Positions 3,454 to 61,660 of a DNA stretch of 64,000 nucleotides are shown one piece after another. The notes beneath the pieces are model-generated. The model saw nothing but the letters and a program-made list of their open reading frames with translations, ran no database searches and had not been told where the DNA came from. The position numbers and the translations under genes were made by a program. The stretch comes from Enterococcus phage AllMyExes. The DNA lies in the sequence record PV544171.1, one strand, 5' to 3'. The first letter of the stretch is position 1; each line of letters starts with the position of its first letter.

Positions 3454-5226
3454 ATGAGACTAGTAGTAGATATTATGCATACTCAGATAAGGTATGAAGA
3501 TTCGGAAAATTATCTTAGACCAGAAATCCATAAGGTAATGCATTCAGAATTAGGTGTTAAAGCAGATGGATACCAATTCAGCCCTGCGTATAAAGCGGGT
3601 TACTGGGATGGTATTATTGATTTTTTTGATAAAGAAAATGATACGTTCCCCACAGGGTTACTACCCCATGTAGAGACAATATTAGGGAATCTCCAATCAA
3701 CTTTATCAAAGTCAGGTTATATTTTTCAGTTTGAAATAATTGATGATAGACCTGATGAGTTCATGTCAGTAGAGGACATGGATAAGGAGATAGTACTTAA
3801 TGGAGATAACAATGACAAGATAACATTAAGAGACTATCAATATGAATCTGTGGAGCAAGTTATTAAGAACAGAATAGGTATTGTAAACGTTAGTACTGGT
3901 GGAGGTAAAACAGAAATAGCATCAGGGCTTATACAACAAATAACCCCTTACTTAGAGTCAGGAGAGCGTATTGCATTTTTTACGAATAGTTCTTCTATTT
4001 TTTCACAGTCAATTGACCGTATTGAGAAAAGACTTGGAATAAAAGTAGGTGCTTTTGGTGCAGGTAAGAAGGACATTCAGCAAGTTACTTTTGTAATGAT
4101 ACCTACGATTGTATCTGCAATATCTGCAGACCCAGAGGCTAAGCTTAAGCTGACTGCTAAAGAAAGAATGTACAAGAAAATTGCTAAGGATATAGCTCCA
4201 AAATTTGAAAGAGGGTTTAACCAAAGGAGTTTGCTTGAAGGATACCTAAATAACTTTCAAGTTAAGACAAAAGCAGACTTGCAGTTGAAACATGAACTAG
4301 AAGAAATTTTTTATTCATGTGGTACGAATAAGCAGGTTATTATGAAAATGAAAGGGTATCAAGCAGAATACCAAAAGATTGTTGAAAAGAAAAATGGTAA
4401 AGTTCTTAAGAAGTACAATGAGGCTATGGAGTTTTTAGATTCCATATCTGTAATGATTGTGGATGAGGCTCACCATACGAGTTCAGATACTTGGTATAAA
4501 GTGTTAACATCTTGTAATAACGCTCAGTATAGAATGGCACTTACTGGTTCGATTGACCGTACAAATCATGTGCTTTGGCAAAGACTTCAAGCTATATTCG
4601 GGGAGATTACGACCAAGGTGTCTAACAACACACTCATTGAATTAGGTCACTCAGCTAAACCTAAAATAACAATATTTCCTATTATAGCCCCTGTAGATAT
4701 TCAAACCACTACGTATATGGATGCCTATCAAAAAGGTATAGTAGACAACGAATATAGAAATTCTCTTATTGCAAAGTTGACTAAGAAGATGTATGATAAA
4801 GGTAATGGGATTTTAATTATAATTAATCGTATAGAGCACGGAGAGGCTATTAGTAACTTGCTAAAAGAAGAGGGAGTAGCTCACTACTTTATCAATGGAC
4901 AACTTGAAAATGATTTAAGGGATGAAAAAATTCAGGACATGCGTGATGGGGCACTTAAAGTAATGATTTCTTCTACGATTATAGATGAAGGTGTTGACAT
5001 TTCAGGGATTGACACATTAATTCTTGGTGCAGGAGGTAAGTCCTTAAGGCAGACACTACAACGTGTTGGTCGGGGCTTACGTAAGAAAAAAACAGGAGAA
5101 AACAAAGTAGAAGTATTCGATTTTTATGATTTAACAAACAAACATTTGAAAAAACATTCAGAGCAGAGAAGAAAAATATATGAAGATGAGCAATTTGAAA
5201 TTGTTGATATTCCTATTCCTAAATAA
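3454..5226 (+). CDS. Superfamily-2 DNA/RNA helicase (DEAH-type)
   Basis: Motif I VSTGGGKT, motif II MIVDEAHH, motif III LTGS and motif VI QTLQRVGRGLRK are all present. It is 590 aa. Confidence 0.8.
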   Translation: MRLVVDIMHTQIRYEDSENYLRPEIHKVMHSELGVKADGYQFSPAYKAGYWDGIIDFFDKENDTFPTGLLPHVETILGNLQSTLSKSGYIFQFEIIDDRPDEFMSVEDMDKEIVLNGDNNDKITLRDYQYESVEQVIKNRIGIVNVSTGGGKTEIASGLIQQITPYLESGERIAFFTNSSSIFSQSIDRIEKRLGIKVGAFGAGKKDIQQVTFVMIPTIVSAISADPEAKLKLTAKERMYKKIAKDIAPKFERGFNQRSLLEGYLNNFQVKTKADLQLKHELEEIFYSCGTNKQVIMKMKGYQAEYQKIVEKKNGKVLKKYNEAMEFLDSISVMIVDEAHHTSSDTWYKVLTSCNNAQYRMALTGSIDRTNHVLWQRLQAIFGEITTKVSNNTLIELGHSAKPKITIFPIIAPVDIQTTTYMDAYQKGIVDNEYRNSLIAKLTKKMYDKGNGILIIINRIEHGEAISNLLKEEGVAHYFINGQLENDLRDEKIQDMRDGALKVMISSTIIDEGVDISGIDTLILGAGGKSLRQTLQRVGRGLRKKKTGENKVEVFDFYDLTNKHLKKHSEQRRKIYEDEQFEIVDIPIPK

Positions 5227-17513: not shown

Positions 17514-18308
17514 ATGACAAAAGCACCCAGAGTGAAAAGACTTAATATTTATAACACTGACCGGTACTTTAATATTAATTTAATGAAAAAAGAAGATATA
17601 GCAAAAAAAATTAAAGTTAACCGATTGAATGAAGAAGAGATAGAGAGGGAGATGGATGAACTAGCAAACAACCCATTGAAGACCCCTATAGGTTACATGG
17701 ATAGAACAAATGAAAAATCTTATATACTTTATCAAGAAAAGTATACGAACGACAGACTTATTCAGAAATTATTTAAACATGCGGGCTCTGTGTCCTATTA
17801 CACAGATACAATCGTACCATACTACATAATTGAGCAAATATCTAAGAATTTAACAAGTGAAGTAATCTATCCTACAAAAAATAGCTATGAGAACAGAGAG
17901 ATTGAAAATGTTCAACTAGCTTTCACTGCCTGCCCTGTAACGATTGATTGCCCAGTAGTGCTACCTGATGTTAGCCCGTATGATGTGTTATTTGCACTAC
18001 ACCCTCTAAAAACAAATGTAGACAAGATTCAAATATCGTTTCCTTGTCTTACAGAAGAAGAGTTCGATACTAGACATGAAGAATACTACCACAAAGTAGG
18101 TAACCACTATGAGGTTAAATCAGAGTACAAATATAAATTCTTTAAGTATGTACAAACTTCCTTATCTATTTGGGCTATGAACATTTGGTTAGTGTGCGAT
18201 AGTGATGAGGACTACAATAAAATAGACAGATATATTCAGAAAGAAAAAATTAAACGTAATGCTAACAGAGAGCGTGCATTAAAGAGAAAGGGTAATCAGG
18301 ATGAGTAA
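17514..18308 (+). CDS. Hypothetical protein
   Basis: A 264-aa ORF. It is preceded by a TGnTATAAT-like extended -10, tggtataat, near 17463. Confidence 0.5.
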   Translation: MTKAPRVKRLNIYNTDRYFNINLMKKEDIAKKIKVNRLNEEEIEREMDELANNPLKTPIGYMDRTNEKSYILYQEKYTNDRLIQKLFKHAGSVSYYTDTIVPYYIIEQISKNLTSEVIYPTKNSYENREIENVQLAFTACPVTIDCPVVLPDVSPYDVLFALHPLKTNVDKIQISFPCLTEEEFDTRHEEYYHKVGNHYEVKSEYKYKFFKYVQTSLSIWAMNIWLVCDSDEDYNKIDRYIQKEKIKRNANRERALKRKGNQDE

Positions 18309-18612
18309 AGATAAAACGATTAACCGAACAGACATAGCTCGAACAATCTCTCACCATACTGGTTATCGAATGAAAGATATATTGAAGATTTTAGAAGTAG
18401 AAGATGAAGTAGTAGCTCAAGCAGTATCACAAGGTATCTCTGTAAAGAATCACAAATTATGGAAACTAAACATTAAAAAAAAGCCAGAGAAGGTAGCATG
18501 GGATGGTATAAACTCTAAAAGTTTTATACAACCTGAGAAATATGTAGTTAAATTTGTACCATTATCTAAGTTGAAAGAGTCAATAGACACTTATAATAAA
18601 GAGAGCAAATAA
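18301..18612 (+). CDS. HU/IHF-family histone-like DNA-binding protein (SPO1 TF1-like)
   Basis: It is 103 aa. The helix-arm-helix pattern, TDIARTISHHTGYRMKDI...VKNHKLWKL...KVAWDGINSKSF..PEKYVVKFVP, aligns with the HU beta-arm architecture. Confidence 0.5.
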   Translation: MSKDKTINRTDIARTISHHTGYRMKDILKILEVEDEVVAQAVSQGISVKNHKLWKLNIKKKPEKVAWDGINSKSFIQPEKYVVKFVPLSKLKESIDTYNKESK

Positions 18613-18626
18613 AGCTCTCTTTTTTG
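18601..18626 (+). terminator. Rho-independent terminator
   Basis: The hairpin gagagc-aaataaa-gctctc is followed by tttttt. Confidence 0.7.
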
Positions 18627-18637
18627 CTCTTTCTATA

Positions 18638-18666
18638 TTGACAAATAACATAATACAAAGTATACT
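18638..18666 (+). promoter_or_regulatory. Sigma-A-type promoter (TTGACA-17-TATACT)
   Basis: TTGACA is at 18638-18643 and TATACT at 18661-18666. It lies upstream of the DNA polymerase gene. Confidence 0.6.
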
Positions 18667-18701
18667 AGTGTCATAGAGCAACAGAGAGGAGAAAAGTGTA
18701 A

Positions 18702-21077
18702 TTGAAAATTCTATTCTTACAAGAGTATATTAGAGAAAATCATGTCCATAATGGAAAGAACGGACAAACAGTTGATTTTAAAAGAACAGAAATGGGTAAA
18801 AAACTCACGGGTCTGTTAAATACAATAGGGCTGACAGGTAGGGACTATGCTGTAGACTATGTGTACGACATGATTCCGGAAGTACAGAAAGTTAACCCTA
18901 GAACAGGTAAACCAATTAAGTATAAGACACCTACGTTAAGACAGCGTAAAGAACCAGAGGAACGGTTACTCAGACGTTTAATGAAATACAAACCAGATAT
19001 TATCATCCCAATGGGGGAGATGGGTTGTAAAAATTTATTAGGAAGTACTTCTATCACAAAGAATAGAGGAGTACCAACTAAGAAAACAATTACGAATGAG
19101 AACATACTGAGAACGGCTGATGAGCAAGGACTTGAGGTAGACGAAGTAGTAGACTCTTTTGAAACTTGGGTACTACCTATGTTTAGTATGGAATACTGGA
19201 CAGCTAACCCAAACATTGAGAACTTTATCATGGCGGATATTGATACATTGGGTAAGTTTGTTCAAGAAGGGGAACAAGCATTTATACCTAAAAAAGTAGA
19301 TTACGAATTTGTTGATAACATTGAACGTGTAAGACAAATTTTCGGTTTTTTAGACAAAACGAAGCCAGTAACTGCATGGGACTTGGAGACAAATAGTTTA
19401 CGTGGTGACTTATTAGGAGCTAAGCCTCTTGTAATGTCTATGAGTTGGCTAGAGGGGCAAGGTGTGACTATACCGTTAGAACACCATGAAGCTAAATGGA
19501 GCCCAGAAGAACTTAACGAAATATATGACTTATTTGAGAAGTTTTTAGCGGACAGACAGCAACCAAAAGTAGGACAAAATATCCAGTTCGATATTAGATT
19601 CTTAATGAACACAAAAGGATTTACAGAGTTTGAAGACAACAGAGATACAAAAATTGCTTACTATCTAATTGTTTCTCAGAAAGTAGACACTTCAAAACGA
19701 CTATCCGATATTGCATATGAATTAACAGATATGGGAGGCTATGACGAACCGTTAGAGCAGTATAAAAAACAGTATAAAGAGGACTATATTGCTCGTAAGA
19801 AAGCAGAGATTGATGCTTTCAAAGAAGCTGAAAAAGAACGAGTAGAGGGTGAGTTCAAGATAGCAATGGATAGATATAAGCAAGAAGTTAAAGAAGCTAA
19901 GCTTATTGGTAAACCTACTAAGTCCATTATTAAACCAGTAAAAGAAAAAGTTGTAGTACCTAAGAAATCGGATATTAAACTTATTAATGAGATTGACGGT
20001 GGTAACTTTAACTACGACTGGATTCCATTAGAAATTATGCACCCATATGCTAGTGGAGATGTCGATTGCTGTCTACGTATCTATAATGTTCTATATAAAC
20101 GAATTGAGGAACATCCTAAGATGTTGGGATTATGGTTGGGCTTTTATCCTAGACTAACAGCAACATTAGCACACATCGAGGCTTCTGGTGTTCTATTAGA
20201 CTCTGAATACGCAGAATTAGTAGAGAACATCTATACAGAAGAAGAACATCGGTTGCTTAATGAAATTAGAAAGTTACCAGAAGTAAAAGAAGTAGAAGAT
20301 GAACATATGATGTTCTACAAAGAGGGGCTTAAAGAAATGACAAAGCCTGTCAAAGATAGAGATGCCTCTGTTGCCAGACTACGAGATAAATATAAAATTA
20401 CTGATAGTGAGAACAAAGTACATTTTAAACCAAGTTCGTCTGAACATAAGGGTAGACTGCTATTTAAAGTAATGGGACTTACACTACCTTATGATAAAGA
20501 ATCTATTAAAAAAGAAACTTTTGACAATGGGGTACCAGAACATCAGCTAACATGGAGAGATTATAAAACAGATAAACATGCACTAGCTTATATTGCAGAA
20601 AATTATCCAGAGGCTAAACATGTTGCTGAACTTTTGCTAGAGTATTCTAAAGTAAACACACTAAAAAATAACTTTGCTCAAAAGTTACCTAAATTAGCAT
20701 CTAACAAAGATGGCATGATTCATGGTTCATATAACAGTACAGGTACAGAATCTACACGATTGAGTGCAAACAACCCGAATATGCAACAATTAAGTAGTAA
20801 GGTTGGAGACCCTAGACGTTTTGACTATAAATATCCAATTAAACGTTTATTTAGAACAAGATTTGAGGGAGGCGGAATGCTACAACTAGACTACTCCGCC
20901 CTAGAAATGCGTATTTTAGGTTTGATTGCAAAAGATAAAGCAATGACACAAGCATTTATTAATGGTGAAGATATGCATGAGGCAACTGCATCTCTTGTAT
21001 GGAAGTTACCTAAAGATAATGTACCAAAAGATATGCGACAACGTGCGAAGAGTGTCAACTTCGGCATCGCTTACGGT
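18702..21077 (+). CDS. Family-A DNA polymerase (Pol I-like), exon 1 (3'-5' exo and N-terminal polymerase domains to motif B)
   Basis: It has a TTG start. It ends in motif B, RQRAKSVNFGIAYG. The reading frame then runs into a stop at 21102, while the Pol I homology resumes about 450 nt downstream in another frame. The exon boundary is approximate, within about 10 nt. Confidence 0.8.
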
Positions 21078-21531
21078 AAACACAATTGCCGTCTTGTAGC
21101 GTAAGCTACTCGATTAAACTTACCTAAACGGGCATAGCTGAATAATCAATAAGCTGATAAGAGAACCTAAGTCCTGAAAAGGATAGAGGCAATCCCGTGC
21201 TAAGTTGCTATAGTAAAAGAAGAGTGTAGGTAGCTAGAATACTTACAGGGTAGTGACGTATGTGGTGTACTGGTAAGCACTGCATATCTGAACCTTTATA
21301 GGGTTATGTGTGAACTCCTCAAACCAGTAAAGAAAACACACTATAGCATAAATGCCGAACGACTATCGAAAAGTGAGTAGCTGTCGAGAGGACACCTACA
21401 ATATAACTGAGTAGAGTACACCAACAGGTGGAAATGGTAAGGCTCCTAGAGTAACGACTAGGAGCGTGATATAGTCTAAGCCCCTAATAAATATCGGGAA
21501 ACCGAGGGTATAACTGGAAAGTCCTTTTTCA
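21078..21531 (+). other. Group I self-splicing intron (ORF-less) interrupting the DNA polymerase gene
   Basis: The segment is about 450 nt with no ORF. A candidate P7 pairing, acgacuag ... auagucuaag, lies near 21455-21480. Pol I homology is continuous across it, ...NFGIAYG | I(A/S)PKLGVTVEEAERIFEEYF.... SPO1-family phages are known to carry group I introns in the polymerase gene. Boundaries are approximate. Confidence 0.7.
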
Positions 21532-22212
21532 ATTGCACCTAAGTTAGGTGTAACTGTAGAAGAAGCAGAGCGTATTTTTGAAGAGTACTTTGCAAGTAAG
21601 CCAAGTATTAAACAATTTATTGAAGAGACACATCAATTTGCTCAACGTTATGGCTACGTAGAAACACTACAAGGACATCGTAGACTATTGCGTGACTCAT
21701 TCTCTAAAGATAAGAAAGTATTTAATGGCGCAATGCGTAAATCAGTAAATACAATCATTCAAGGAACTGGTGCCTACTTAACTAACCTATCAATGGTATA
21801 CATTGACGAGTATATCAGAAAACACAATAAGCGTTCACGTATTGTTATCACTGTACATGACTCACTTGTTATTGATTGCCCACGTGATGAAGTGGACGAG
21901 ATGGCAAAAGTGGCTAAATATATTATGGAGAACTTGCCAATTGATTTCTTAATGATTGAGTGGGAAGGTAAAGAGATGCGTTACCCTATTGTGGCAGATG
22001 TAGAGATTGGGGAGAATTACAATGATATGGTTGATTATGATGCAGAAATTATCAACGAGTTTGCTTCTTACCGAGGATACGTAAAATACTTCAAAGACCA
22101 AGCTAAGATTAAAGATTACTATGATAACAAACTTATCTCAGAAGAGCAAAAAGACCAAGGTATCAAAGTTATCCAAGATGCAATAGAGTCATATAAACAA
22201 ATGACAATTTAA
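21532..22212 (+). CDS. Family-A DNA polymerase, exon 2 (motif C / C-terminal palm-thumb)
   Basis: The in-frame sequence IAPKLGVTVEEAERIFEEYFASKPSIKQFIEETHQFAQRYGYVETLQGHRR begins upstream of the first ATG at 21688. Motif C is VITVHDSLVID. The frame ends at 22212. Confidence 0.75.
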   Translation: MAPKLGVTVEEAERIFEEYFASKPSIKQFIEETHQFAQRYGYVETLQGHRRLLRDSFSKDKKVFNGAMRKSVNTIIQGTGAYLTNLSMVYIDEYIRKHNKRSRIVITVHDSLVIDCPRDEVDEMAKVAKYIMENLPIDFLMIEWEGKEMRYPIVADVEIGENYNDMVDYDAEIINEFASYRGYVKYFKDQAKIKDYYDNKLISEEQKDQGIKVIQDAIESYKQMTI

Positions 22213-22912: not shown

Positions 22913-24202
22913 ATGAATTTTCAAGAACAATTACAACAACAATTAAAACAACAAAATATTGGAGAACGTGAAGCGGTAGACTACCCATCAAATCATTTAA
23001 AACATAAAGAATTATACTTCCCTAAAGCAGAAAATGGTCAACCATCAACTCTATATGTACGTGTGTTACCTCCTGCAGTACCGGGAGAAAACTATAATGT
23101 TAGCGCTCGTGAGGCATTCTTAACAACTCGTAATCGTAATGGTAAAGATTTAAAGAGCAACTTTATCTTTTCAGAACACCCTAATGCAGAAGACATCTTA
23201 GAACAAGCTATGATTCGTTGGAACGCAGAAAATCGTGTACCAAACCCTTATAGCCGTAATACAAAACCTCGTCAACGTTACTACGTTAACGTAGTGCAGT
23301 TAATTATTAACCAACAAACAGGAGAAGTTAGCTACGAAACAGATTCTAATGGTCAGCTAATGGTTCGTTTACTTAAGTTACCACAAACAGCTTGCATGGC
23401 TATTAATGAGAGCTTAAGTAACCCAATGTTACGTCCACAGTTTTCACCTGATGTACCAGAAGAAGTAGCACAATACAGCTTCATCTCTTCTGCAGATGCG
23501 TTCCCTATTTCAATTACAAAACCACCACGTAGTAACAAACCTACTTCGTACAATGTACAAGTGATTAGTAATCGTAGCTTAGGTGCATTACCACAAGGTT
23601 GGGAAAACTTATTAGAAGACTTGAAATACCAAGCTACACCTTCTGTAGAGTATAATCGTGAGTTTATTGAGTACTTTATTGATGTAGTAGACGGGAAAGA
23701 ACCTGTGCATCAAGGAGCTCAAAGTCAAGGAACCCAAGCTCCACAATTTAATCAGCAACCAGTACAGCCTCAATTTAATCAACAGCCTGTACAACCACAA
23801 TTTAACCAACAACCTGTACAACCAATGCAACAAAATACTGGTTGGTCGCCACAGCAAAGCCAACCACAACAACCTGCTACAGGTTTTAACGCAACGAACA
23901 TGGGGACACCTCCAAACATTAATGGAGGGTTTAACCAACAACCTGTACAACAACCTGTACAACAGCAACAACCGATGGGTTCTTTCAATGAACAACCAGT
24001 GACAGACCCTTCCACCATTTCTGATGCGGATATGCCTTTCAATATGCAGTCCATGCCTGATGTATCACCACAACAAAATGCTGTACCTGAGCAACCTGTG
24101 ACTAATACACCAGAGCCAGTCAGCCAACCAGTTGTTAACCAACAGCCAAATAACACACCTAGTGTAGACGACCTATTAGCAGGTATGGTAGGCAACGTTT
24201 AA
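22913..24202 (+). CDS. Putative single-stranded DNA-binding protein with Q/P-rich low-complexity C-terminal half
   Basis: It is 429 aa. It sits between the polymerase and RecA genes. The C-terminal half carries a tandem QFNQQPVQP x3 repeat and an acidic 'SDADMPF' motif that resembles the SSB 'DDDIPF' tail. The assignment is tentative. Confidence 0.35.
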   Translation: MNFQEQLQQQLKQQNIGEREAVDYPSNHLKHKELYFPKAENGQPSTLYVRVLPPAVPGENYNVSAREAFLTTRNRNGKDLKSNFIFSEHPNAEDILEQAMIRWNAENRVPNPYSRNTKPRQRYYVNVVQLIINQQTGEVSYETDSNGQLMVRLLKLPQTACMAINESLSNPMLRPQFSPDVPEEVAQYSFISSADAFPISITKPPRSNKPTSYNVQVISNRSLGALPQGWENLLEDLKYQATPSVEYNREFIEYFIDVVDGKEPVHQGAQSQGTQAPQFNQQPVQPQFNQQPVQPQFNQQPVQPMQQNTGWSPQQSQPQQPATGFNATNMGTPPNINGGFNQQPVQQPVQQQQPMGSFNEQPVTDPSTISDADMPFNMQSMPDVSPQQNAVPEQPVTNTPEPVSQPVVNQQPNNTPSVDDLLAGMVGNV

Positions 24203-24220
24203 CAATAATGAAACAGTTAG

Positions 24221-24242
24221 GAGGGGCATACTGCCCCTTTTA
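24221..24242 (+). terminator. Rho-independent terminator
   Basis: The hairpin aggggca-tac-tgcccct is followed by ttt. Confidence 0.6.
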
Positions 24243-24286
24243 ATTCTGTGTTAACTATCCAAAATATTTAGTAGGAGTGAATAATA

Positions 24287-25534
24287 TTGGCAAGAAAAAG
24301 AAAAAGTGAAGAAATAGATTTTGGAACTATCGATTTGACAAAAGAGGTAGGGCTAACTACATTTACGGACACAAAGTTCTCTAATGTATCAGACAGACTA
24401 CCAACAATGATTCCACAACTTGATTACATTTTAGGTGGAGGATTGCCATTTGGACGTATGGTCGAGGTCTTTGGTAAGAACTCTAGTGGTAAGTCCACTT
24501 TAGCAGTTCATCTGACAAAGGTAGCACAGATGCTAGATGTACCAACTGTATGGATTGACGTTGAGGGTACCGCAGACCCAGAACGCTTAGCAGAATTAGG
24601 AGTAGACTTTAGTGCAGGCGGGGTATTCATGGTAGAACCTAAACAGAACAAAGACGGTAGTAAGGATACAATCACGGTAGAACGTGTAGCAGAAGAGTTA
24701 CAACGACTTCTACCAGTATTCAGTAAGCTTGGAAAACCTGTATTAATTATTTGGGACTCGGTAGCGCAAACAGCTTCTGAGAAAGAGTTAGAAAAAGGTG
24801 TAGGTAACCAACAGCCCGGAATTAAGGCAAAAGCAATGGCACAGTTTGCTCAAATCATTGCACCTTTAATGACAAACTCAAAAGCATTATTTATTGCTAT
24901 TAACCAAGCACGTGATGAGCTAGGTAGTATGTTTGGTGGAGTAGATTCCCCCGGAGGACACGCCTTACATCACTGGGCTAGCTTACGATTAGAAGTAGTT
25001 AAAGCAAGTCAGATTAAGAATAAAGAGCTGAATGCATTCGGTGCGGAGGAAGAGACTTATGTAGGGCATATTCTACGTGTTAAAACGGCAAAATCAAAAG
25101 TGTCTCGTCCTAATCAAAAAGCGGAAATGTATTTAATGTCAGATACAGGTCTGAACTTAGAGGAAAACATTTATCGTTCATGTTTTGCAACTAATAAGCA
25201 GTATGCTTTGATTAGTGGAGGCACATGGAAGTCTTATACAACGGATGCAGGACAAGAGATTAAATTCAATTCAGACAAAGCTTGGGTGGCTTATTTACGT
25301 TCAGAAGAGGGAAGACCTGTTCGAGACGAACTATTTGCTAAAATGATGGTACGCTCATTCCCACATCGTTATGCCCCATTTAATAATGAGGACGTGGACG
25401 TATGCAAAATTCCATTATATGAATTTACTAAAGAATATATGGAAAATCATAAGGAACAACCTAACCAAGCTACTAAAGAAGAAGTCCCCGAAACAGGAAC
25501 AGATGTTTCAGATTTACTTAAACAGGTAGACTAA
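24287..25534 (+). CDS. RecA/UvsX-like recombinase
   Basis: It has a TTG start. Walker A is FGKNSSGKSTLAV. Walker B-like LIIWDSVAQT is present. The loop-2-like segment is AINQARDELGSMFGG. Confidence 0.75.
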   Translation: MARKRKSEEIDFGTIDLTKEVGLTTFTDTKFSNVSDRLPTMIPQLDYILGGGLPFGRMVEVFGKNSSGKSTLAVHLTKVAQMLDVPTVWIDVEGTADPERLAELGVDFSAGGVFMVEPKQNKDGSKDTITVERVAEELQRLLPVFSKLGKPVLIIWDSVAQTASEKELEKGVGNQQPGIKAKAMAQFAQIIAPLMTNSKALFIAINQARDELGSMFGGVDSPGGHALHHWASLRLEVVKASQIKNKELNAFGAEEETYVGHILRVKTAKSKVSRPNQKAEMYLMSDTGLNLEENIYRSCFATNKQYALISGGTWKSYTTDAGQEIKFNSDKAWVAYLRSEEGRPVRDELFAKMMVRSFPHRYAPFNNEDVDVCKIPLYEFTKEYMENHKEQPNQATKEEVPETGTDVSDLLKQVD

Positions 25535-25540
25535 CAGATA

Positions 25541-25564
25541 AGGGGGCAATTAGCCCCTTTATTA
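25541..25564 (+). terminator. Rho-independent terminator (weak U-tract)
   Basis: The hairpin agggggc-aatta-gccccct is followed by ttatt. Confidence 0.5.
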
Positions 25565-27947: not shown

Positions 27948-28391
27948 ATGGCTAAAGAAATATTAAATATTGAAGACCTGTTAAAACCAGAGACACTAGA
28001 AGTAGCAATAGATGGTAAATACCTTATTGTACCAACATTGTCGGATGGGTTTACAGGTACAGTAGCAGGTGGATATGCATATGCTGTTACAAAAAAAGGA
28101 ACAGACTATACAGTTAACGAATTAATTTATAACAAAAAGGATAATACATTTAAACCTTCTGATGAACCGATTATTATAACTGATGATAATGAAATATTCT
28201 TCATTACTCGTACATTAGAAGACCCATATAATTACCCTGTAGTTGCTACAGAGAAACTTAAAACTAAAGATGTAAAAGAAAAACAAGTTTTACAAGCGTT
28301 CTTAGCATTTGCTGATGACAGATTTAAGTTAGGTGTTTACAATGTGTTCTTAGCAGATGAACCATTTGTGTATGGGGACAAAACAGAATAG
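27948..28391 (+). CDS. Paralog of the N-terminal domain of the Ig-like protein
   Basis: Compare LIVPTLSDGFTGTVAGGYAYAVT...EDPYNYPVVATE...VLQAFLAFADDRFKLGVYNVFL with LVVETISDGYTGTVSGHYNYEID...IDPYNHAVVDE...TLQAFKLFVNDLFSFGSYNIFL. Confidence 0.6.
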   Translation: MAKEILNIEDLLKPETLEVAIDGKYLIVPTLSDGFTGTVAGGYAYAVTKKGTDYTVNELIYNKKDNTFKPSDEPIIITDDNEIFFITRTLEDPYNYPVVATEKLKTKDVKEKQVLQAFLAFADDRFKLGVYNVFLADEPFVYGDKTE

Positions 28392-28401
28392 TTTCATTAT
28401 A

Positions 28402-28429
28402 AGAGACCCGTTAAGGTCTCTTTTTTTTT
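28402..28429 (+). terminator. Rho-independent terminator
   Basis: The hairpin gagacc-cgttaa-ggtctc is followed by ttttttttt. Confidence 0.75.
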
Positions 28430-28439
28430 GTATATAGTG

Positions 28440-28468
28440 TTGACAATGTTGTAGTTTAGTTATATACT
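28440..28468 (+). promoter_or_regulatory. Sigma-A-type promoter (TTGACA-17-TATACT)
   Basis: TTGACA is at 28440-28445 and TATACT at 28463-28468. Confidence 0.6.
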
Positions 28469-28497
28469 ATACTTATACTGTATAAGGAGGTAACCAC

Positions 28498-28803
28498 ATG
28501 AACGACAATAAGGAAAAATGTATTAAACAAGGAATACGAAATACTTATAAAGGGTACGATATTTTATTAGATGAAGAGAATGGATTTTTCTATGTTAGCG
28601 TACTTGACCCAGATGGCAAAGAAATCATTAGTGGGTTTGTAGAGGCGGATAAACCTATTGAAGAATACTATAAAGAGCTCCTAAGTAAATGCGACCAAGA
28701 CATATTATTCAAAGACCTTTTAAGACCCTTAAATGGACGTAGAGACACTGAACGTACAGACATACGTTTTTTTAAAAAGAGATGGTGGGGTATAAGTAAA
28801 TGA
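28498..28803 (+). CDS. Hypothetical small protein
   Basis: A 101-aa ORF with the RBS aaggagg. Confidence 0.55.
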   Translation: MNDNKEKCIKQGIRNTYKGYDILLDEENGFFYVSVLDPDGKEIISGFVEADKPIEEYYKELLSKCDQDILFKDLLRPLNGRRDTERTDIRFFKKRWWGISK

Positions 28804-28828
28804 CAAAGATAAAACTTATTACAAAAAA
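28785..28828 (+). repeat. 44-bp direct repeat, copy 1 (RBS + first 11 codons 'MTKIKLITKKN')
   Basis: The sequence tggggtataaGtaaatgacaaagataaaacttattacaaaaaa is repeated at 29598-29641 with one mismatch. Confidence 0.85.
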
Positions 28829-29588
28829 AAATAAGAGAGGTCAGCACAATATGGGAAAAAAGTTAGAATTAAATAAGATTCACAAAATTTCTTGGGAGAA
28901 GGGGTTTTCAAGCCTAGACGACGGTTCAATAGACCTAATTATAACGTCACCTCCATATAATCTAGGAGGCAGATTTCATACAGGTAACACTGTATATAAA
29001 GCTTACAACACATACAATGATAATATCCCAGAAAAAGAATATCAGCAAAACCAGATAGATTTCTTAAATGCTTGTTACGACAAATTAGAGGAAAATGGGA
29101 GCTTGTTTTACAACCATAAACCTAGAATAAAAAATGGGGTGTGTACTCACCCATTGGAGTGGATACTTCAATCAAAATTTATTTTGAAACAAGAGATTGT
29201 TTGGAGGAATGGAGGTCAGAATTTCGATAAAATAAGATTTTACCCTCTAACCGAGAGAGTATATTGGCTAGTTAAGAATCCAAAAACAAAACTGCATAAT
29301 GCTTTAGGTTTATCTGATATATGGGAGTTTAAGAACAGAAAGAGACATAAAATCCATAAAGCAACATTCCCAATTGAGCTACCCAAATCAATAATTTCAT
29401 GTTTTCCTAACGCTAAAACAATACTAGACCCATATATGGGTGTTGGTACGACTGCAAAAGCTGTAATTGAATTGAATAAGCAAGATGGTGGAAACAGAGA
29501 TTTCTTAGGATTTGAAATTGACGAACTTTATATAAATGATTTTTATAAAGAAATTACAGAAGATAACAAACTTATTGATAATAACTAG
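28800..29588 (+). CDS. DNA methyltransferase, beta-class amino-MTase (N6-adenine or N4-cytosine)
   Basis: Motif IV DLIITSPPYN lies N-terminal to motif I DPYMGVGTTAKA. It is 262 aa. Confidence 0.75.
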   Translation: MTKIKLITKKNKRGQHNMGKKLELNKIHKISWEKGFSSLDDGSIDLIITSPPYNLGGRFHTGNTVYKAYNTYNDNIPEKEYQQNQIDFLNACYDKLEENGSLFYNHKPRIKNGVCTHPLEWILQSKFILKQEIVWRNGGQNFDKIRFYPLTERVYWLVKNPKTKLHNALGLSDIWEFKNRKRHKIHKATFPIELPKSIISCFPNAKTILDPYMGVGTTAKAVIELNKQDGGNRDFLGFEIDELYINDFYKEITEDNKLIDNN

Positions 29589-29597
29589 AGATAAACA

Positions 29598-29641
29598 GTG
29601 GGGTATAATTAAATGACAAAGATAAAACTTATTACAAAAAA
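29598..29641 (+). repeat. 44-bp direct repeat, copy 2
   Basis: This is the same sequence as 28785-28828. It provides the RBS and the first 11 codons of the downstream gene. Confidence 0.85.
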
Positions 29642-30566
29642 GAACACCCAAGGCTATGTCATGAACACGCTGTTACGCAGGTTCTATAAGGACATTGTAG
29701 ATGTAGAATTTCTTAATAAATTCAATCTACCTGATATTCACAACCATATAGGAGAATATGATGCTGTTATTATAGCAGGGTTTCCTTTCTTTGAAAGCCA
29801 ACGAGGTGCATTAGATACAGCATTATCATCTATGGATAACCCATTTAGCAAGGTGTACCATTTAGCAACATTTGGAGACACCTATCGTAATGAGGGTAGT
29901 TTTCGTTCATTTGTAGATGAAGTTGTAAGCCCTGTTGGACACTTTTCAGAGTTGATAATCGACTTAGTTAAGTTCACTAACACAGGTACAAAAGAGGACG
30001 AGGATAAGGTAATAGCGCTTGCTAAAACTATGCTAGACTTTTCTAAAGATATTATAGAAGAGACAGACAACTACAATCGTTATGAAGTAACAGACAGAAC
30101 TATCTCTTGGGTTCTTCTTGTAGATTTGCTTGGAGAAAATCTTTATAAGGTAGCAGAACCTTGTAAAGAGCTAGGCACTATCTTGAAAGAACAAGAAGTA
30201 CTTGTAGATGCCTTGAACATAAATATGCAGGACTATGTGCTAAGAACAATAGGGAAGATGTCTGCAAACGTCATTAATGGAACAGTGGTTTGTTTTGGTT
30301 ATGCAGAACAGCATGTTAACGAAGTAGCCCATAAATTAATTAATTTTTATAAGTCACATAACTATCAAAAAGTTATTGTCTTTATTGGTAGACACACAAA
30401 AGGTGACGACATGTTTAGTGTAAGGAGCTATGGTGTGAATGCCGGAGAGGTTGTCTATAAAGTTCATAATGGTAAAGGGAAAGATACAACGGCAACCGTC
30501 TTCTTAGGTAAACCTAGTGAAGCTGTAAATAACACACTGTTAAGTGTGCTTTCTGAAATCTTATAG
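29613..30566 (+). CDS. Hypothetical protein (N-terminus duplicated from the MTase gene start)
   Basis: It is 317 aa. It shares MTKIKLITKKN with the upstream gene at the DNA level. Confidence 0.5.
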   Translation: MTKIKLITKKNTQGYVMNTLLRRFYKDIVDVEFLNKFNLPDIHNHIGEYDAVIIAGFPFFESQRGALDTALSSMDNPFSKVYHLATFGDTYRNEGSFRSFVDEVVSPVGHFSELIIDLVKFTNTGTKEDEDKVIALAKTMLDFSKDIIEETDNYNRYEVTDRTISWVLLVDLLGENLYKVAEPCKELGTILKEQEVLVDALNINMQDYVLRTIGKMSANVINGTVVCFGYAEQHVNEVAHKLINFYKSHNYQKVIVFIGRHTKGDDMFSVRSYGVNAGEVVYKVHNGKGKDTTATVFLGKPSEAVNNTLLSVLSEIL

Positions 30567-30619
30567 TTTAACTTTGTGGTATAATAAAGATAGATAAATT
30601 TTGATAGGAGTGTAAATTT

Positions 30620-31903
30620 TTGAAAAACAACGAACCTTTAGAGAAGTTATTAGACAAATTAGATGAACCAAGAATTTTACAAACAATTATTATAGGTAGT
30701 TTACAACGGAGCTTTAATCGAGTACACGTTGGTAAATTTAATAAACTAGCACAGGAGTTTGACTTAGATAAGGAGAACCTGTATAGCTTAAAGGCACTAG
30801 TTAAGGAAATTGAAGAAGATAAAGAGTTACACGAACTTTACGAAGCTAGCATGGCAGGCAAAATTACGCTAGAGGCTGTTCGTAAAGTATTGTTACAAGA
30901 TGATAAATCATCGTTTGATGTACTGTCTTCTTACGTAGTAGAGAATCAAGCAGTGCTAGCCCGTAACCGAGAGTTCGGTAAGTTACAACGTGAGGGAGCT
31001 TATCTTGACCATTTAATTAGTGGTTTGAAAACATACTTATTAGCTGAACTAAAAGACATGTCTAGTTTAAAATATATCAATAAAAATTTAAAGGCACCGA
31101 AAGTATCCTCAGACCGAGAACTTATTCTGTGCCTATCCGACTGGCATATTGGTGCTTTTGTTAATAACATTGACACAGGTGGATACAACTTTGAAATCTT
31201 TAAAGAACGACTTGAAAAGTTATTAGAAGAAGTATTCCAAGTGGCTATGGAACAGGATATTAAGAAAATTCATGTTTACCATATTGGGGATATTATTGAA
31301 CACATTAATATGCGTAATGTTAACCAAGCATTTGAAGCGGAGTTTCCTGCTACGGAACAGATTGCTAAAGGAATTAGAGTTCTTGCTGATACACTTAATT
31401 TACTAGCTAAGGCAGAATTTGAAGTGTCTTTCGGTATGGTTGGTGGTAACCACGACCGTTTCCAAGGTAACAAAAATGATAAAATTCATAATGATAATGT
31501 GGCTTATCTTGTAGTAGACCAACTTCATTTCTTACAAGAATTAGGGGCGTTAAACAAAGATATTAAACTTGTAGACAACAGAAGTGATGTTTATAGTTTT
31601 AAAGATACAGTTGCAGGGAAACGTATTAAAGTAACGCATGGTGACACTGAGGGCAAAAAAGTAGATGTTAAAATCCCTAAACATATCAAAGATGAAGTTA
31701 TTGACTACCTAATCATGGGACACATTCATACAACACGTATTATTCAAGAAGACTTTTCAAGATTCCATGTGTATGTTGGCTCTCCTATGGGGGCAAATAA
31801 CTACTCAGCAGAGAATAACTTGCCAACAACAAGCCCTGCACAGCTAATTATGGTATTAGACCCTGAGCGTGATACACCACAATTCATGCCAGTATTCTTA
31901 TAG
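30620..31903 (+). CDS. Calcineurin-like metallophosphoesterase (second Mre11-like / phosphodiesterase)
   Basis: It has a TTG start. Motifs DWH, GDIIEH, GGNHD and GHIHT are present. The N-terminal 150 aa are helical. Confidence 0.55.
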   Translation: MKNNEPLEKLLDKLDEPRILQTIIIGSLQRSFNRVHVGKFNKLAQEFDLDKENLYSLKALVKEIEEDKELHELYEASMAGKITLEAVRKVLLQDDKSSFDVLSSYVVENQAVLARNREFGKLQREGAYLDHLISGLKTYLLAELKDMSSLKYINKNLKAPKVSSDRELILCLSDWHIGAFVNNIDTGGYNFEIFKERLEKLLEEVFQVAMEQDIKKIHVYHIGDIIEHINMRNVNQAFEAEFPATEQIAKGIRVLADTLNLLAKAEFEVSFGMVGGNHDRFQGNKNDKIHNDNVAYLVVDQLHFLQELGALNKDIKLVDNRSDVYSFKDTVAGKRIKVTHGDTEGKKVDVKIPKHIKDEVIDYLIMGHIHTTRIIQEDFSRFHVYVGSPMGANNYSAENNLPTTSPAQLIMVLDPERDTPQFMPVFL

Positions 31904-52529: not shown

Positions 52530-52690
52530 ATATGTTAGGATAGACTTAAGATAGGATAGGATAAACTTAGGATGCACTTTGGTTTAGGATAGGTTTAGGA
52601 TAGGTTTAGGATAGGTTTAGGATAAGATAGGATACAGGATAGGATAAACTTAGGATAGACTTAGGATGCACTTTGGTTTAGGATAGGATG
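52530..52690. repeat. Tandem short-period repeat array ('aggatagg(ttt)' units, with a ~35-bp sub-unit 'ggataaacttaggatgcactttggtttaggatagg' present twice)
   Basis: The array was read directly. It reads ggataggataaacttaggatgcactttggtttaggataggtttaggataggtttaggataggtttaggataagataggatacaggataggataaacttaggatagacttaggatgcactttggtttaggataggatggggg. Confidence 0.85.
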
Positions 52691-53134
52691 GGGGATATGA
52701 CTATGAGTTACGTTAATGAGTTTGAAACAATTGGAGATTGGTTAGATAGAGAAATTTATGATGTGTTACTAAGAGATGGGCATGATATTGACGAATTAGA
52801 TAATTGGGGAATGGCTTTATCTGCCTTAAGTGAAGGTTACGTTCTAACAGATGGACTTGACAAACCATTCCTAGAGTTAACTAGAGAAGACCTAGTAGCA
52901 GGCTACAACCACTTTAAAGAAGAACTGAATGGGTGGTTACGAGGGGGTAAACTGCTAGAAGTCTCTGATAACTTATCTACAATTCAGGGGTTCAGTTTTG
53001 ACCATGACGATGTTTTATTCTTAGAGGATAACAACAAAGCTTATGCAATGCTAGTAGGTATTATCATTGAATCAAGAGACACATATAAAAATGGTTTCTG
53101 TAAGGGTCACTATGTAATACCTTACCAAGATTGA
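52688..53134 (+). CDS. Hypothetical early protein
   Basis: It is 148 aa. The first ATG lies within the repeat array, so the true start may be the ATG at about 52700-52706. Confidence 0.45.
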   Translation: MGDMTMSYVNEFETIGDWLDREIYDVLLRDGHDIDELDNWGMALSALSEGYVLTDGLDKPFLELTREDLVAGYNHFKEELNGWLRGGKLLEVSDNLSTIQGFSFDHDDVLFLEDNNKAYAMLVGIIIESRDTYKNGFCKGHYVIPYQD

Positions 53135-53167: not shown

Positions 53168-53273
53168 AAGTAGCAGGCTACAAAATCTCCTAAGTAGCTG
53201 GCTACAAAACGAAAAATCCTCTAAGTAGCAGGTTGCAAAATGAGAAATCCTCTAAGTAGCAGGCTACAAAATC
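53168..53273. repeat. Four 20-bp iterons 'taagtagc(a/t)gg(c/t)t(a/g)caaaa(t/c)', each containing the dyad gtagc-NN-gctac
   Basis: Copies lie at 53168-53187, 53191-53210, 53223-53242 and 53254-53273. The spacers are ctcc, gaaaaatcctc and gagaaatcctc. A GC-rich stem-loop follows at about 53275-53340. Confidence 0.8.
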
Positions 53274-53403
53274 CGGATGCGCCCGGCTAGCGGTGGAGAG
53301 CCAAGCCATGCGGGTTCACCTTAATAGCTACCGTCCCCAGATTGTCGGTTTTTCTCCCTTTATATAGTAAGAAAAATTATTTAAAAAAAATGAACTTTTC
53401 TAT

Positions 53404-54159: not shown

Positions 54160-54179
54160 AAAAAAATTAATCAAAACTA

Positions 54180-54235
54180 TTGACAAAAAACAAAAGATAG
54201 TGTATTATAAATTTATAAGATAAAGAAAGGAAGTT
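54180..54235 (+). promoter_or_regulatory. Early promoter + conserved leader repeat
   Basis: TTGACA is at 54180. The -10 region is gtgtattataaat. The leader is tttataagataaagaaaggaagttatgaacATG. Confidence 0.65.
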
Positions 54236-54565
54236 ATGAACATGAATGAATTAGAAGCAGTGAAAGAATGGAATAATAAAATTGAGGAACAACAAGAAGT
54301 GCTAAACAAGGTTATTACTACTTTTTATAAAGAAATCGACTTAAAGGTTAAAATGGTAAACCGTGGCTTGCTAGGTCAGTTATCAGCTTTTAACGAACTA
54401 AAAGGAATGTTATTAGGCATTGAGCTAATAGCAAAGGTTATTGCACCCGATAACGTGCTACCTATTACAACCCACAATTTTTTAGAAAATTTATTTCTAG
54501 GGGATAACGAACAACGGGCATATGCAAAAGAATACCTAGACGGCTTTTTAAAATCAGTAGAATAA
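54236..54565 (+). CDS. Hypothetical small early protein (N-terminus MNMNELE shared with 56270 gene)
   Basis: A 109-aa ORF. Confidence 0.5.
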   Translation: MNMNELEAVKEWNNKIEEQQEVLNKVITTFYKEIDLKVKMVNRGLLGQLSAFNELKGMLLGIELIAKVIAPDNVLPITTHNFLENLFLGDNEQRAYAKEYLDGFLKSVE

Positions 54566-55424: not shown

Positions 55425-55444
55425 AAAAAAATTAATCAAAACTA

Positions 55445-55506
55445 TTGACAAAAAACAAAAGATAGTGTATTATAGGTTTATAAGATAAAGAGAGGAAGTT
55501 ATTGAC
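55445..55506 (+). promoter_or_regulatory. Early promoter + conserved leader repeat
   Basis: It reads ttgacaaaaaacaaaagatagtgtattataggtttataagataaagagaggaagttattgacATG. Confidence 0.65.
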
Positions 55507-55800
55507 ATGACAGAACAACAATTTAAAAAAGAGCATTTATTAGAACCAACAGAATGGCGTAGTGGGGGCTACTTAGACACTAGTAAAATCAATCAAAAAC
55601 AATCTTACTATATCGAGTCAAGACCTCGTGTATATGGTGGCTGTTATGTTTACCAATATGTTACAATGAAAGATGGCACGGTCTACGAGCTTTACAGCAT
55701 GACGGCAAGCACTAGAGGAATTGTTGCACATAACTGCCACGCTAGAAACGTATTACAAAGAGATGTAAAACAATATAGAGATAGTGCTATTCATTATTAA
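55507..55800 (+). CDS. Hypothetical small early protein
   Basis: A 97-aa ORF. Confidence 0.5.
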   Translation: MTEQQFKKEHLLEPTEWRSGGYLDTSKINQKQSYYIESRPRVYGGCYVYQYVTMKDGTVYELYSMTASTRGIVAHNCHARNVLQRDVKQYRDSAIHY

Positions 55801-55910: not shown

Positions 55911-56117
55911 ATGAAATTATCTGATATTATTCTAGTAGGTTTATTAGTTAGCGTTGTACTACTTTGGGGCTACCTTAGCATTATGATTTGCTTACAAGTT
56001 TTCAGAGCGTTGGGCGGTTGGGATATTAGAACGTTAACGGTTTGCAGTGGTTTGCTATTTGCTTATGTTTTCGGTTTAAAAGGAATTTGGGAACAAGGGA
56101 TAGGGAAAAATAAATAA
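55911..56117 (+). CDS. Small membrane protein (2 TM)
   Basis: The hydrophobic segments are IILVGLLVSVVLLWGYLSIMICL and LTVCSGLLFAYVFGL. Confidence 0.5.
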   Translation: MKLSDIILVGLLVSVVLLWGYLSIMICLQVFRALGGWDIRTLTVCSGLLFAYVFGLKGIWEQGIGKNK

Positions 56118-56136
56118 AAAAAATTAATCAAAACTA

Positions 56137-56193
56137 TTGACAAAAAACAAAAGATAGTGTATTATAGGTTTATAAGATAAAGAGAGGAAGTTA
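56137..56193 (+). promoter_or_regulatory. Orphan copy of the promoter-leader repeat (first unit of a 77-bp tandem duplication)
   Basis: The full promoter + leader ends in ...gataaagagaggaagtt and is followed directly by the second copy rather than by an ATG. Confidence 0.6.
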
Positions 56194-56213
56194 AAAAAAA
56201 TTAATCAAAACTA

Positions 56214-56269
56214 TTGACAAAAAACAAAAGATAGTGTATTATAGGTTTATAAGATAAAGAGAGGAAGTT
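56214..56269 (+). promoter_or_regulatory. Early promoter + conserved leader repeat (second unit of tandem duplication)
   Basis: TTGACA is at 56214. The leader is ...gataaagagaggaagttatgaacATG. Confidence 0.65.
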
Positions 56270-56521
56270 ATGAACATGAATGAATTAGAATGTATTTACG
56301 ACAGTAGAAAGAGCTTTTATGGAAAAGCTAACCTAGTAGAAGAGGAAAACGGTATTTCTCTTTATTCATATGATACAAAAGTTGCGACAATTTACACTAA
56401 TGGACTAGCAAAGGTTTTCGGTACGTACTCACAGACAACGTTGCGACATATTAAGGAATTTTTTAAGCAAAACGGACTAAAAGCAGACACTAAAAAACAA
56501 ATTGAAAAAGATTATCTATAA
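56270..56521 (+). CDS. Hypothetical small early protein (N-terminus MNMNELE)
   Basis: An 83-aa ORF. Confidence 0.5.
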   Translation: MNMNELECIYDSRKSFYGKANLVEEENGISLYSYDTKVATIYTNGLAKVFGTYSQTTLRHIKEFFKQNGLKADTKKQIEKDYL

Positions 56522-61286: not shown

Positions 61287-61421
61287 ATGACAATCGAACA
61301 GATTAACGCAGAAGTAAAACAACAAGAAATGCTTGGTAACAAATTAGAAGTAATTCAGTTAGGTAATGATATTTACATGTATATTAACGGTGAACCATAC
61401 AAAACAATCGAATTAATTTAA
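61287..61421 (+). CDS. Small protein (44 aa, N-terminus MTIEQ), below ORF-track cutoff
   Basis: The RBS is tagggagga. A paralogous start lies at the 61502 gene. Confidence 0.4.
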   Translation: MTIEQINAEVKQQEMLGNKLEVIQLGNDIYMYINGEPYKTIELI

Positions 61422-61439
61422 AAAGTTTCATCTTTTCTA

Positions 61440-61501
61440 TTGACAAATAACAACAGCTAGTATATAATAGGTTTATAAGATAAAGAGAGGGAGTTATTAC
61501 T
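61440..61501 (+). promoter_or_regulatory. Early promoter + conserved leader repeat
   Basis: It reads ttgacaaataacaacagctagtatataataggtttataagataaagagagggagttattactATG. Confidence 0.6.
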
Positions 61502-61660
61502 ATGACAATCGAACAAGTGAAAGACTACGGCAAAGCATACGGAAAAGAGCTATCAACTAAGGAAGTAAAAGAATTTTTTGAGAAACACAACGACATGCCT
61601 TCACTAATGGACTTAGCAAAGTTTTGCGGGGCAATGAACGAGGACGGAACAAAAAATTAA
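61502..61660 (+). CDS. Small protein (52 aa, N-terminus MTIEQ), below ORF-track cutoff
   Basis: It reads MTIEQVKDYGKAYGKELSTKEVKEFFEKHNDMPSLMDLAKFCGAMNEDGTKN. Confidence 0.45.
   Translation: MTIEQVKDYGKAYGKELSTKEVKEFFEKHNDMPSLMDLAKFCGAMNEDGTKN

Follow-up and report, generated by a model that had tools for sequence, protein, structure and literature searches.

A methyltransferase gene bracketed by direct repeats at the gp070/gp071 boundary of an Enterococcus Kochikohdavirus: a probable recent insertion with duplication of the boundary

Classical lambdoid morons, in the concept of Hendrix and Juhala, bring their own promoter and terminator. Orphan DNA methyltransferases, among them the Dam enzymes of T4 and P1 and the multispecific methyltransferases of Bacillus phages, usually have an anti-restriction role. 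In T4-type phages, modular shuffling mediated by PeSLs—dispersed promoter-plus-stem-loop cassettes—has been described together with mini-circles (Arbiol et al. 2010, PMC2839356; Comeau et al. 2014, PMC4122927). Here we describe a locus of Enterococcus phage AllMyExes (sequence record PV544171.1), analyzed in a stretch of 64,000 nt that we refer to as the window, in which a predicted DNA methyltransferase gene lies between the homologues of gp070 and gp071 and is bracketed by direct repeats. Comparison with related phages makes it probable that this is a recent illegitimate insertion with a 60-nt duplication of the boundary, expressed within the surrounding operon, later spread and lost among relatives, and conferring a putative N4-methylcytosine (m4C) protection.

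The locus shares with lambdoid morons a dispensable additional gene separating two that adjoin in relatives, with slightly lower GC content and a possible benefit to the phage; it differs in that the insert lacks a promoter and terminator, is read in an operon, and carries a 60-nt target duplication. Its likeness to PeSL-mediated shuffling is that direct repeats of expression signals flank an open reading frame (ORF), and recombination between them deletes or mobilizes it, in a large lytic myovirus with UvsX-type recombination; here, however, the repeated segment is a one-off combination of gene end, ribosome-binding site and gene start, present in two copies in 64 kb and without a hairpin. 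Like other orphan phage methyltransferases the enzyme is solitary, has no partner nuclease, belongs to a virulent phage and varies in presence among close relatives, although its sequence points to m4C and not to N6-methyladenine (m6A) or 5-methylcytosine (m5C). Transposons and insertion sequences likewise leave direct repeats of the target on either side of the insert, but these measure 2–14 bp compared with 60 nt here, and the locus has neither terminal inverted repeats nor a transposase. No published description of this insertion was found in the literature searched, and we regard it as a clear though ordinary instance of the gain and loss of an accessory gene, one that would not surprise a specialist.

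The window derives from a Kochikohdavirus (EF24C-like Enterococcus myophages; Herelleviridae/Brockvirinae), and all 37 phage records matched in a megablast search with positions 28000–31000 belong to that genus. Two of the 37, phage 53 and vB_Efa29212_3e (3e), cover the query fully and contain the methyltransferase. The other 35, which represent about 29 distinct phages, align in two pieces, lack the methyltransferase, and are 811–813 nt shorter; in these empty-site phages gp070 abuts or overlaps gp071, with the two genes contiguous in all 35 records, and the repeat sequence is present once. One Logan contig and one 142-kb metagenome contig also have the gene, giving five carriers including the window. 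The first-pass annotation, which was made from the window alone, had predicted heterogeneity in the presence of the gene and had noted that recombination between the repeats would delete it and restore one intact downstream gene; such heterogeneity is found between isolates (five genomes with the gene and about 29 phages without), and the 35 related records show exactly the single-copy junction expected of such a deletion. The contrary case that it had named, in which all relatives have the same arrangement with diverged repeats, was not seen when related genomes were compared at this locus.

A repeat search returned two direct copies of 47 nt, identical at 45 positions and 813 nt apart from start to start (Table 1). 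The pattern originally noticed, with K at its one variable base, occurs exactly at 28786–28828 and 29599–29641 and has no other match in the 64 kb at up to three mismatches; its chance expectation is 0.00 matches in 100 dinucleotide-preserving shuffles. As a consequence of the repeat, the ORFs at 28800–29588 (262 aa) and 29613–30566 (317 aa) both start with MTKIKLITKKN. Nucleotide identity between the copies stops after ACAAAAAA, at 28828/29641, and the eleventh codon (AAT versus AAC) lies beyond it, so that the shared eleventh residue is coincidental. Also within the repeat are the final five codons of gp070 and its TGA stop, which overlaps the ATG.

The closest empty-site phage is BG143, and its comparison with the window over 50 kb gives two high-scoring segment pairs around the cassette. 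A single 60-nt segment of BG143 aligns both to window positions 28769–28828 and to 29582–29641, leaving 753 nt (28829–29581) unmatched, and the 813-nt difference is thus made up of 753 imported and 60 duplicated nucleotides. Within the duplicated segment lie the tail of gp070, the ribosome-binding site and codons 1–10 of gp071. The initial description of 44-bp repeats carrying the ribosome-binding site and 11 codons therefore needs adjustment: the repeats are real and both ORFs do have the site and the common start, but the duplication relative to BG143 is 60 nt and takes in the 3′ end of gp070, and identity ends before codon 11. Over the same 50 kb, no other indel of more than 100 nt between the window and either BG143 or phage 53 has a junction overlap of more than 4 nt, which indicates a one-off event with long bracketing repeats specific to this cassette.

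The outer part of the duplication can be followed through the alleles at the end of gp070. The right junction is common to all five carriers and reads ...ATTGATAA joined to TAACTAGAGATAAACAGTGGGG..., with the TAG stop of the methyltransferase inside; its 17-nt stretch TAACTAGAGATAAACAG is found in five of five carriers and, among empty sites, only in BG143, where it defines type C. At the left junction the window has type A and the four remaining carriers have type B, and the outer 16 nt of the window's left copy are thus now a different allele. Among the empty sites, type A (the EF24C form) accounts for 15 records, confirmed by sequence for EF24C with the remainder assigned by identity band, and type B for 19, with four of these sequence-checked; type C is BG143 alone, and a further allele, type D, comes from one Logan contig. 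Upstream of the core, the two copies retain an in-register similarity of 10/18 (P = 0.03) or 29/60 (P = 0.004), which we treat as a weak sign of a deeper duplication because the two sequences are in different reading frames.

The 3′ end of gp070 is naturally hypervariable. Its last ~20 nt (window 28767–28784) occur as four sharply different alleles, A to D, in genomes that are otherwise 95–99% identical, and these alter the C-terminal 3–11 residues as well as the distance to the gp071 ATG, which ranges from an overlap of 4 nt to a gap of 28 nt.

We propose that in a single recent illegitimate event 753 nt of foreign DNA, carrying an orphan beta-class methyltransferase gene with its own ribosome-binding site, entered the gp070/gp071 boundary of a Kochikohdavirus. 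The two novel joints would lie 60 nt apart in the target—the left in the A-run at codons 10–11 of gp071 and the right at TAACTAG, 31 nt before the ATG of gp071—so that the 60 nt between them became duplicated. With the right copy, gp071 would retain its native ribosome-binding site and N-terminus, and the left copy would retain the end of gp070 and leave a redundant gp071 start before the methyltransferase. Schiekvirus homologues of gp071 align from residue 1 and keep ITKKN.QGYV, and phrog_1850 matches from residue 2; judged by this conservation, the N-terminus is real coding sequence and gp071 a core gene, and only a non-disruptive product of the insertion would be expected to survive.

Translation of the methyltransferase would not depend on the redundant start. 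All 11 aligned homologues (68–81% identity) begin within three residues of Met18 of the window ORF, and the corresponding start is the annotated one in phage 53 and 3e; by this alignment the native start is the internal ATG at 28851. The A-run at the left joint is A9, A9, A9, A8 and A7 across the five carriers, and the MTKIKLITKKN extension is in frame only where A9 is combined with an intact ATG, as in the window and OJJD01. Phage 53, with A8, has a 21-codon upstream ORF; 3e has A7 together with ATT in place of ATG; and the Logan contig also has ATT for ATG. The left-copy start is thus frameshifted or without its ATG in three of the four other carriers, and from these sequences the left copy is decaying in sister genomes. 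In the window a form longer by 17 residues is probably translated as well.

Transcription would come from upstream. A candidate promoter at 28440–28468, lying beyond a terminator-like hairpin that closes the preceding unit, probably drives gp070, the methyltransferase and gp071. A consensus scan found no promoter-like site between 28804 and 28850 and no plus-strand terminator after the end of the methyltransferase (29588); weak 9/12 promoter-like matches occur at chance rate. With no promoter or terminator of its own the insert would be read within the gp070–gp071 operon and is not a moron in the strict sense. The suggested footprint of a moron or cassette stands as far as it concerns a repeat-bracketed extra gene between genes adjacent in relatives, but not for the signals that a moron brings.

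A canonical extended −10 element, TGGTATAAT, is located at 30577–30585, 35 nt upstream of the TTG start (30620) of the gp072 exonuclease gene. The element, which the two-hexamer scan missed, points to an internal promoter immediately downstream of gp071.

The role of BG143 is where the proposed insertion is most open to another reading, namely that only ~47–50 nt were duplicated, that the 17 nt TAACTAGAGATAAACAG came from the donor, and that BG143 arose secondarily from a carrier by deletion, with the crossover just outside the perfect repeat but in register. We consider this unlikely, although it has substance. On either flank BG143 is almost identical to the window, and the difference between them is therefore recent; its right flank nests within carrier diversity (99.2% identity to the window, compared with 98.2% between the window and 3e), it is the sole type-C empty site among the 35 records, and the phage has a full recombination kit. 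The BG143 junction, however, has exactly the type-B length, which a random illegitimate deletion would rarely produce and which favors a pre-existing allele or a precise in-register event. Homologous crossovers would moreover be expected inside the 32–44 nt of identity and not 17 nt outside it, where similarity is 10/18, and with four alleles at the hypervariable end of gp070 a pre-existing type-C allele would be unremarkable.

Recombination at the repeats does appear to have occurred since the insertion. The methyltransferase DNA of the window and of phage 53 is 100% identical while their left alleles differ (type A versus type B), placing a crossover between 28784 and 28829, inside the left repeat; the repeat thus recombines in nature. 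Relatives annotate UvsX-, UvsY-, SSB-, RusA- and SbcCD-like genes, functions that fit later spread and loss by homologous recombination. We suggest that the cassette moved between co-infecting phages by homologous recombination in its flanks, with at least one crossover inside the left repeat, and that crossing-over from one repeat to the other may remove it. The two copies share an identical run of at most 32 nt in the window and of ~16 nt in 3e and ERR11509239, and in 3e they differ at three positions; at ~16 nt, as in 3e, deletion should be reduced and the gene stabilized.

That the repeat recombines also bears on a second alternative, Campbell-type integration of a small circle consisting of the methyltransferase and one boundary segment, similar to a PeSL mini-circle, with the repeats as the recombination site. 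Integration of such a circle by one crossover would yield exactly the order repeat-insert-repeat, and T4-type phages make and package mini-circles of this kind (PMC2839356). The first linkage of methyltransferase to boundary segment would be left unexplained, however, and the segment occurs only twice in 64 kb, which does not resemble a dispersed regulatory cassette; the PeSL-like promoter cassettes elsewhere in the window (43–64 kb) are not involved in the methyltransferase insertion. We judge this origin improbable. A related speculation, to which we give little chance of being correct, is that the cassette is reversible: excised as an 813-bp circle that keeps one copy of the repeat, it would insert again, through one crossover at the conserved gp070/gp071 boundary, into any Kochikohdavirus infecting the same cell, and the slippage-prone A7–A9 run at the left joint would serve as a phase switch, with the methyltransferase translated either as a fusion extended at its N-terminus or in coupling to an upstream ORF. 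If this were true, populations would be mixed in methylation state, as a hedge against methylation-dependent host nucleases.

The age and source of the insert were approached through its sequence relationships. Methyltransferase DNA is 99.5–100% identical among carriers; gp071 falls into two haplotypes ~7% apart, of which all carriers share one, and BG143 gp071 is 99.2–99.3% identical to those of the window and phage 53. No insert is present at this junction in the sister genus Schiekvirus. The closest methyltransferase outside the carriers is in Schiekvirus EfsSzw-1 (81% aa identity), where it follows the primase and has no bracketing repeat; more distant ones (68–78% aa) are next to ThyX, or between NrdD and dUTPase, in other large phages, and the best bacterial match, at 51%, is in metagenome-assembled genomes (GTDB). 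The variety of loci among these phages speaks for a mobile gene. The near-identical methyltransferases, the single gp071 haplotype and the empty Schiekvirus junction indicate one recent acquisition, from a phage donor, on one gp071 background, and not an ancestral gene. The opposite history, in which the ancestral Kochikohdavirus already had the gene and deletion between the repeats later removed it from most lineages, would account for the exact empty junction and for the different left-flank alleles of carriers; yet a methyltransferase diversity of at most 0.5% against ~7% between gp071 haplotypes, with all carriers in one of these, together with the absence of an insert in Schiekvirus and the different, repeat-free locus of its sole related methyltransferase, makes it very unlikely.

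That the repeat is an assembly or chimeric artefact is hardly credible: short-read graph assemblies do break at this repeat, but the repeat-methyltransferase-repeat layout recurs in five assemblies made independently by different laboratories and on different platforms, which agree apart from small independent differences.

The breaks themselves are seen in Logan, whose assembly graph is built of 31-mers. Two contigs (64,984 nt and 1,970 nt) that encode exactly the gp070 of the window both stop at ...CTTATTACAAAA, a point within the 32-nt exactly repeated run, and a contig without the methyltransferase reads through. A 31-mer graph would break at the repeat if a sample held two continuations, and the two contigs are likely carriers with a type-A left junction; their ends are no proof of mixed populations. 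Automated short-read graph assemblies may thus fragment or mis-join at this locus.

Some observations tell against the proposed insertion. The primary product that it calls for, with type C at both junctions, was absent: an exact-pattern scan of IMG/VR gave 0 matches, a metagenome pattern scan recovered one more carrier only, with a type-B left junction, and a search for gp070 variants returned no type-C protein and one further allele (type D). BG143, the only type-C empty site, could have reverted and would then not stand for the target; its annotation shows many genes in pieces and the quality of the record may be uneven, and possible frameshift errors call for caution over single-base details wherever it serves as reference. 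The donor was not found by tblastn against phages, in a 5.8-billion-protein search, in GTDB genomes or in IMG/VR, none of which gave anything above 81% aa identity, and these searches returned no Enterococcus chromosomal homologue. The differences in poly-A length among the carriers could in part be homopolymer sequencing errors.

Other classes of element were considered and rejected. A transposon is excluded by the lack of inverted repeats at the insert ends and of a transposase, by the 60-nt duplication, and by the methyltransferase being the sole ORF; a homing endonuclease is excluded as the insert has no second ORF and no nuclease.

The enzyme belongs, as first annotated, to the beta-class amino-methyltransferases. 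It matches Pfam PF01555 (N6_N4_Mtase) with 107.5 bits against a cut-off of 26.7 (E = 1.3e-30) over profile positions 1–219 of 221, and phrog_67 'DNA methyltransferase' at 5e-37. Motif IV, SPPY (28947–28958), precedes motif I, DPYMGVGTT (29427–29453), which is the beta-class order; in the 262-aa ORF, ITSPPYNLGG (residues 48–57) and DPYMGVGTT (210–218) are both conserved in 12 homologues, with S50, P52 and Y53 invariant and P51 nearly so. The best match among solved structures is N4CMT of Adineta vaga, a eukaryotic enzyme of bacterial origin with an added chromodomain. This cytosine-N4 methyltransferase aligns to residues 8–236 (PDB 8S9M/8S9N; E = 4e-26) and shares the beta-class motif order, SPPY within a common TSPPYN, and a similar length; it is a distant homologue only, and its recognition sequence is not transferable. 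The next structural matches are unnamed methyltransferases (~1e-9) and the m6A enzymes MboIIA and CcrM (~1e-7), and the adenine models of NCBIfam score far below their cut-offs (43 bits versus 292–830). Adenine enzymes have DPPY where N4CMT has SPPY (PMC10406627). As motif IV is of the SPP(Y/F) type and the nearest characterized relative makes m4C, we lean towards m4C over the GenBank label 'adenine specific, MboIIA', which is attached to the methyltransferase of phage 53 (2350–3087 of its compared piece).

No cognate nuclease gene is found next to the methyltransferase, and its neighbors, gp070 in a conserved position and the DHH-like gp071, are also present in phages that lack it; a restriction-modification system was rejected, there being no nuclease beside the gene. 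The anti-restriction role predicted in the first pass is plausible by analogy with other orphan enzymes: the methyltransferase would probably place N4-methylcytosine on phage DNA and so protect it from host restriction.

The locus offers a natural example of how a large virulent phage can gain a gene inside an operon with its neighbors unbroken, in which both joints, the duplication and the empty site are readable; the repeats, at differing stages of decay in sister genomes, illustrate how an insertion becomes fixed. A cocktail directed against vancomycin-resistant Enterococcus included phage 53 (PMC10998888). Kochikohdaviruses are used therapeutically, and a variable methyltransferase may shift host range across strains with different restriction systems; carrier stocks with near-perfect repeats may be genetically unstable at this locus. 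For annotation, the base label of the methyltransferase is probably wrong and the start of gp071 is mis-set in some records. The second of these concerns phage 53 (3160–4065 of its compared piece) and a Logan gene call (3811–4716), in which gp071 is annotated from its second ATG (906 nt), dropping 16 conserved N-terminal residues.

Table 1. Features of the methyltransferase locus (window coordinates)
Feature	Position	Strand	Basis
Terminator-like hairpin with a T-run after it, at the end of the upstream unit	28401..28422	+	
Sigma-70-like candidate promoter, TTGACA-17-TATACT, 11/12	28440..28468	+	consensus match only
gp070 homologue (EF24C ORF070, phrog_20613, function unknown); TGA overlaps ATG 28800	28498..28803	+	
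Left copy of the 60-nt duplicated segment; outer 16 nt type A (EF24C-type)	28769..28828	+	BG143 comparison
Left core repeat, 47 nt: gp070 end, GGGG ribosome-binding site, ATG, 10 gp071 codons	28785..28831	+	
A9 homopolymer at the left novel joint	28823..28831	+	
Putatively imported DNA, 753 nt, 32.5% GC, absent from empty-site phages	28829..29581	+	
Shine-Dalgarno-like GAGAGG of the methyltransferase itself, 10 nt 5′ of ATG 28851	28835..28840	+	sequence reading
Methyltransferase coding sequence (CDS) from the predicted native start, 245 aa	28851..29588	+	homologue alignment
Right copy of the duplicated segment, 60 nt, matching the one BG143 copy exactly (type C + core); TAG 29586–29588 inside	29582..29641	+	
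Right core repeat, 47 nt	29598..29644	+	
gp071 homologue (DHH/DHHA1-like 'exopolyphosphatase', phrog_1850), conserved across Herelleviridae	29613..30566	+	

Several further features of the window and its relatives were recorded. At least 17 copies of a 70–100-nt cassette precede small ORFs between 43190 and 63567 (for example at 54160–54256, 55425–55521, 56117–56290 and 61420–61516), each consisting of CTATTGACAAATAACAA, a −10 box, TATAAGATAAAGAGAGGAAGTT and an ATG. The copies at 56117 and 56194 are in tandem, 77 nt apart, and those at 54160 and 56194 are 97% identical, including the first codons. This part of the window resembles an early-gene region in which PeSL-like cassettes, each with a promoter and a ribosome-binding site, are dispersed.

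A 440-nt segment at 21080–21517, absent from phage 53, splits the DNA polymerase frame into ORFs 18702–21104 and 21688–22212; the polymerase of phage 53 is one CDS of 3072 nt. The segment contains the only Rfam match in the window, a 'drum' RNA (RF02958) at 21248–21344 on the plus strand with 46.5 bits against a gathering threshold of 43, and is intron-like, with no group I or II model matched. At the same site BG143 has a larger insert with an HNH endonuclease. The helicase, DNA polymerase, SSB and UvsX of BG143 are each annotated as several short CDSs (for example 1290–1860, 17863–21925 and 23998–25544); some of these breaks coincide with HNH- or intron-type inserts and others may be frameshift errors.

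Other repeats in the window include an iteron-like dense array of degenerate AGGATAGG and TTTAGGATAGG units, spaced 11–17 nt apart, at 52553–52698, three tandem units of 31 nt at 53182–53274, and three of 27 nt at 23741–23821, the last read as in frame and encoding PQFNQQPVQ-like repeats.

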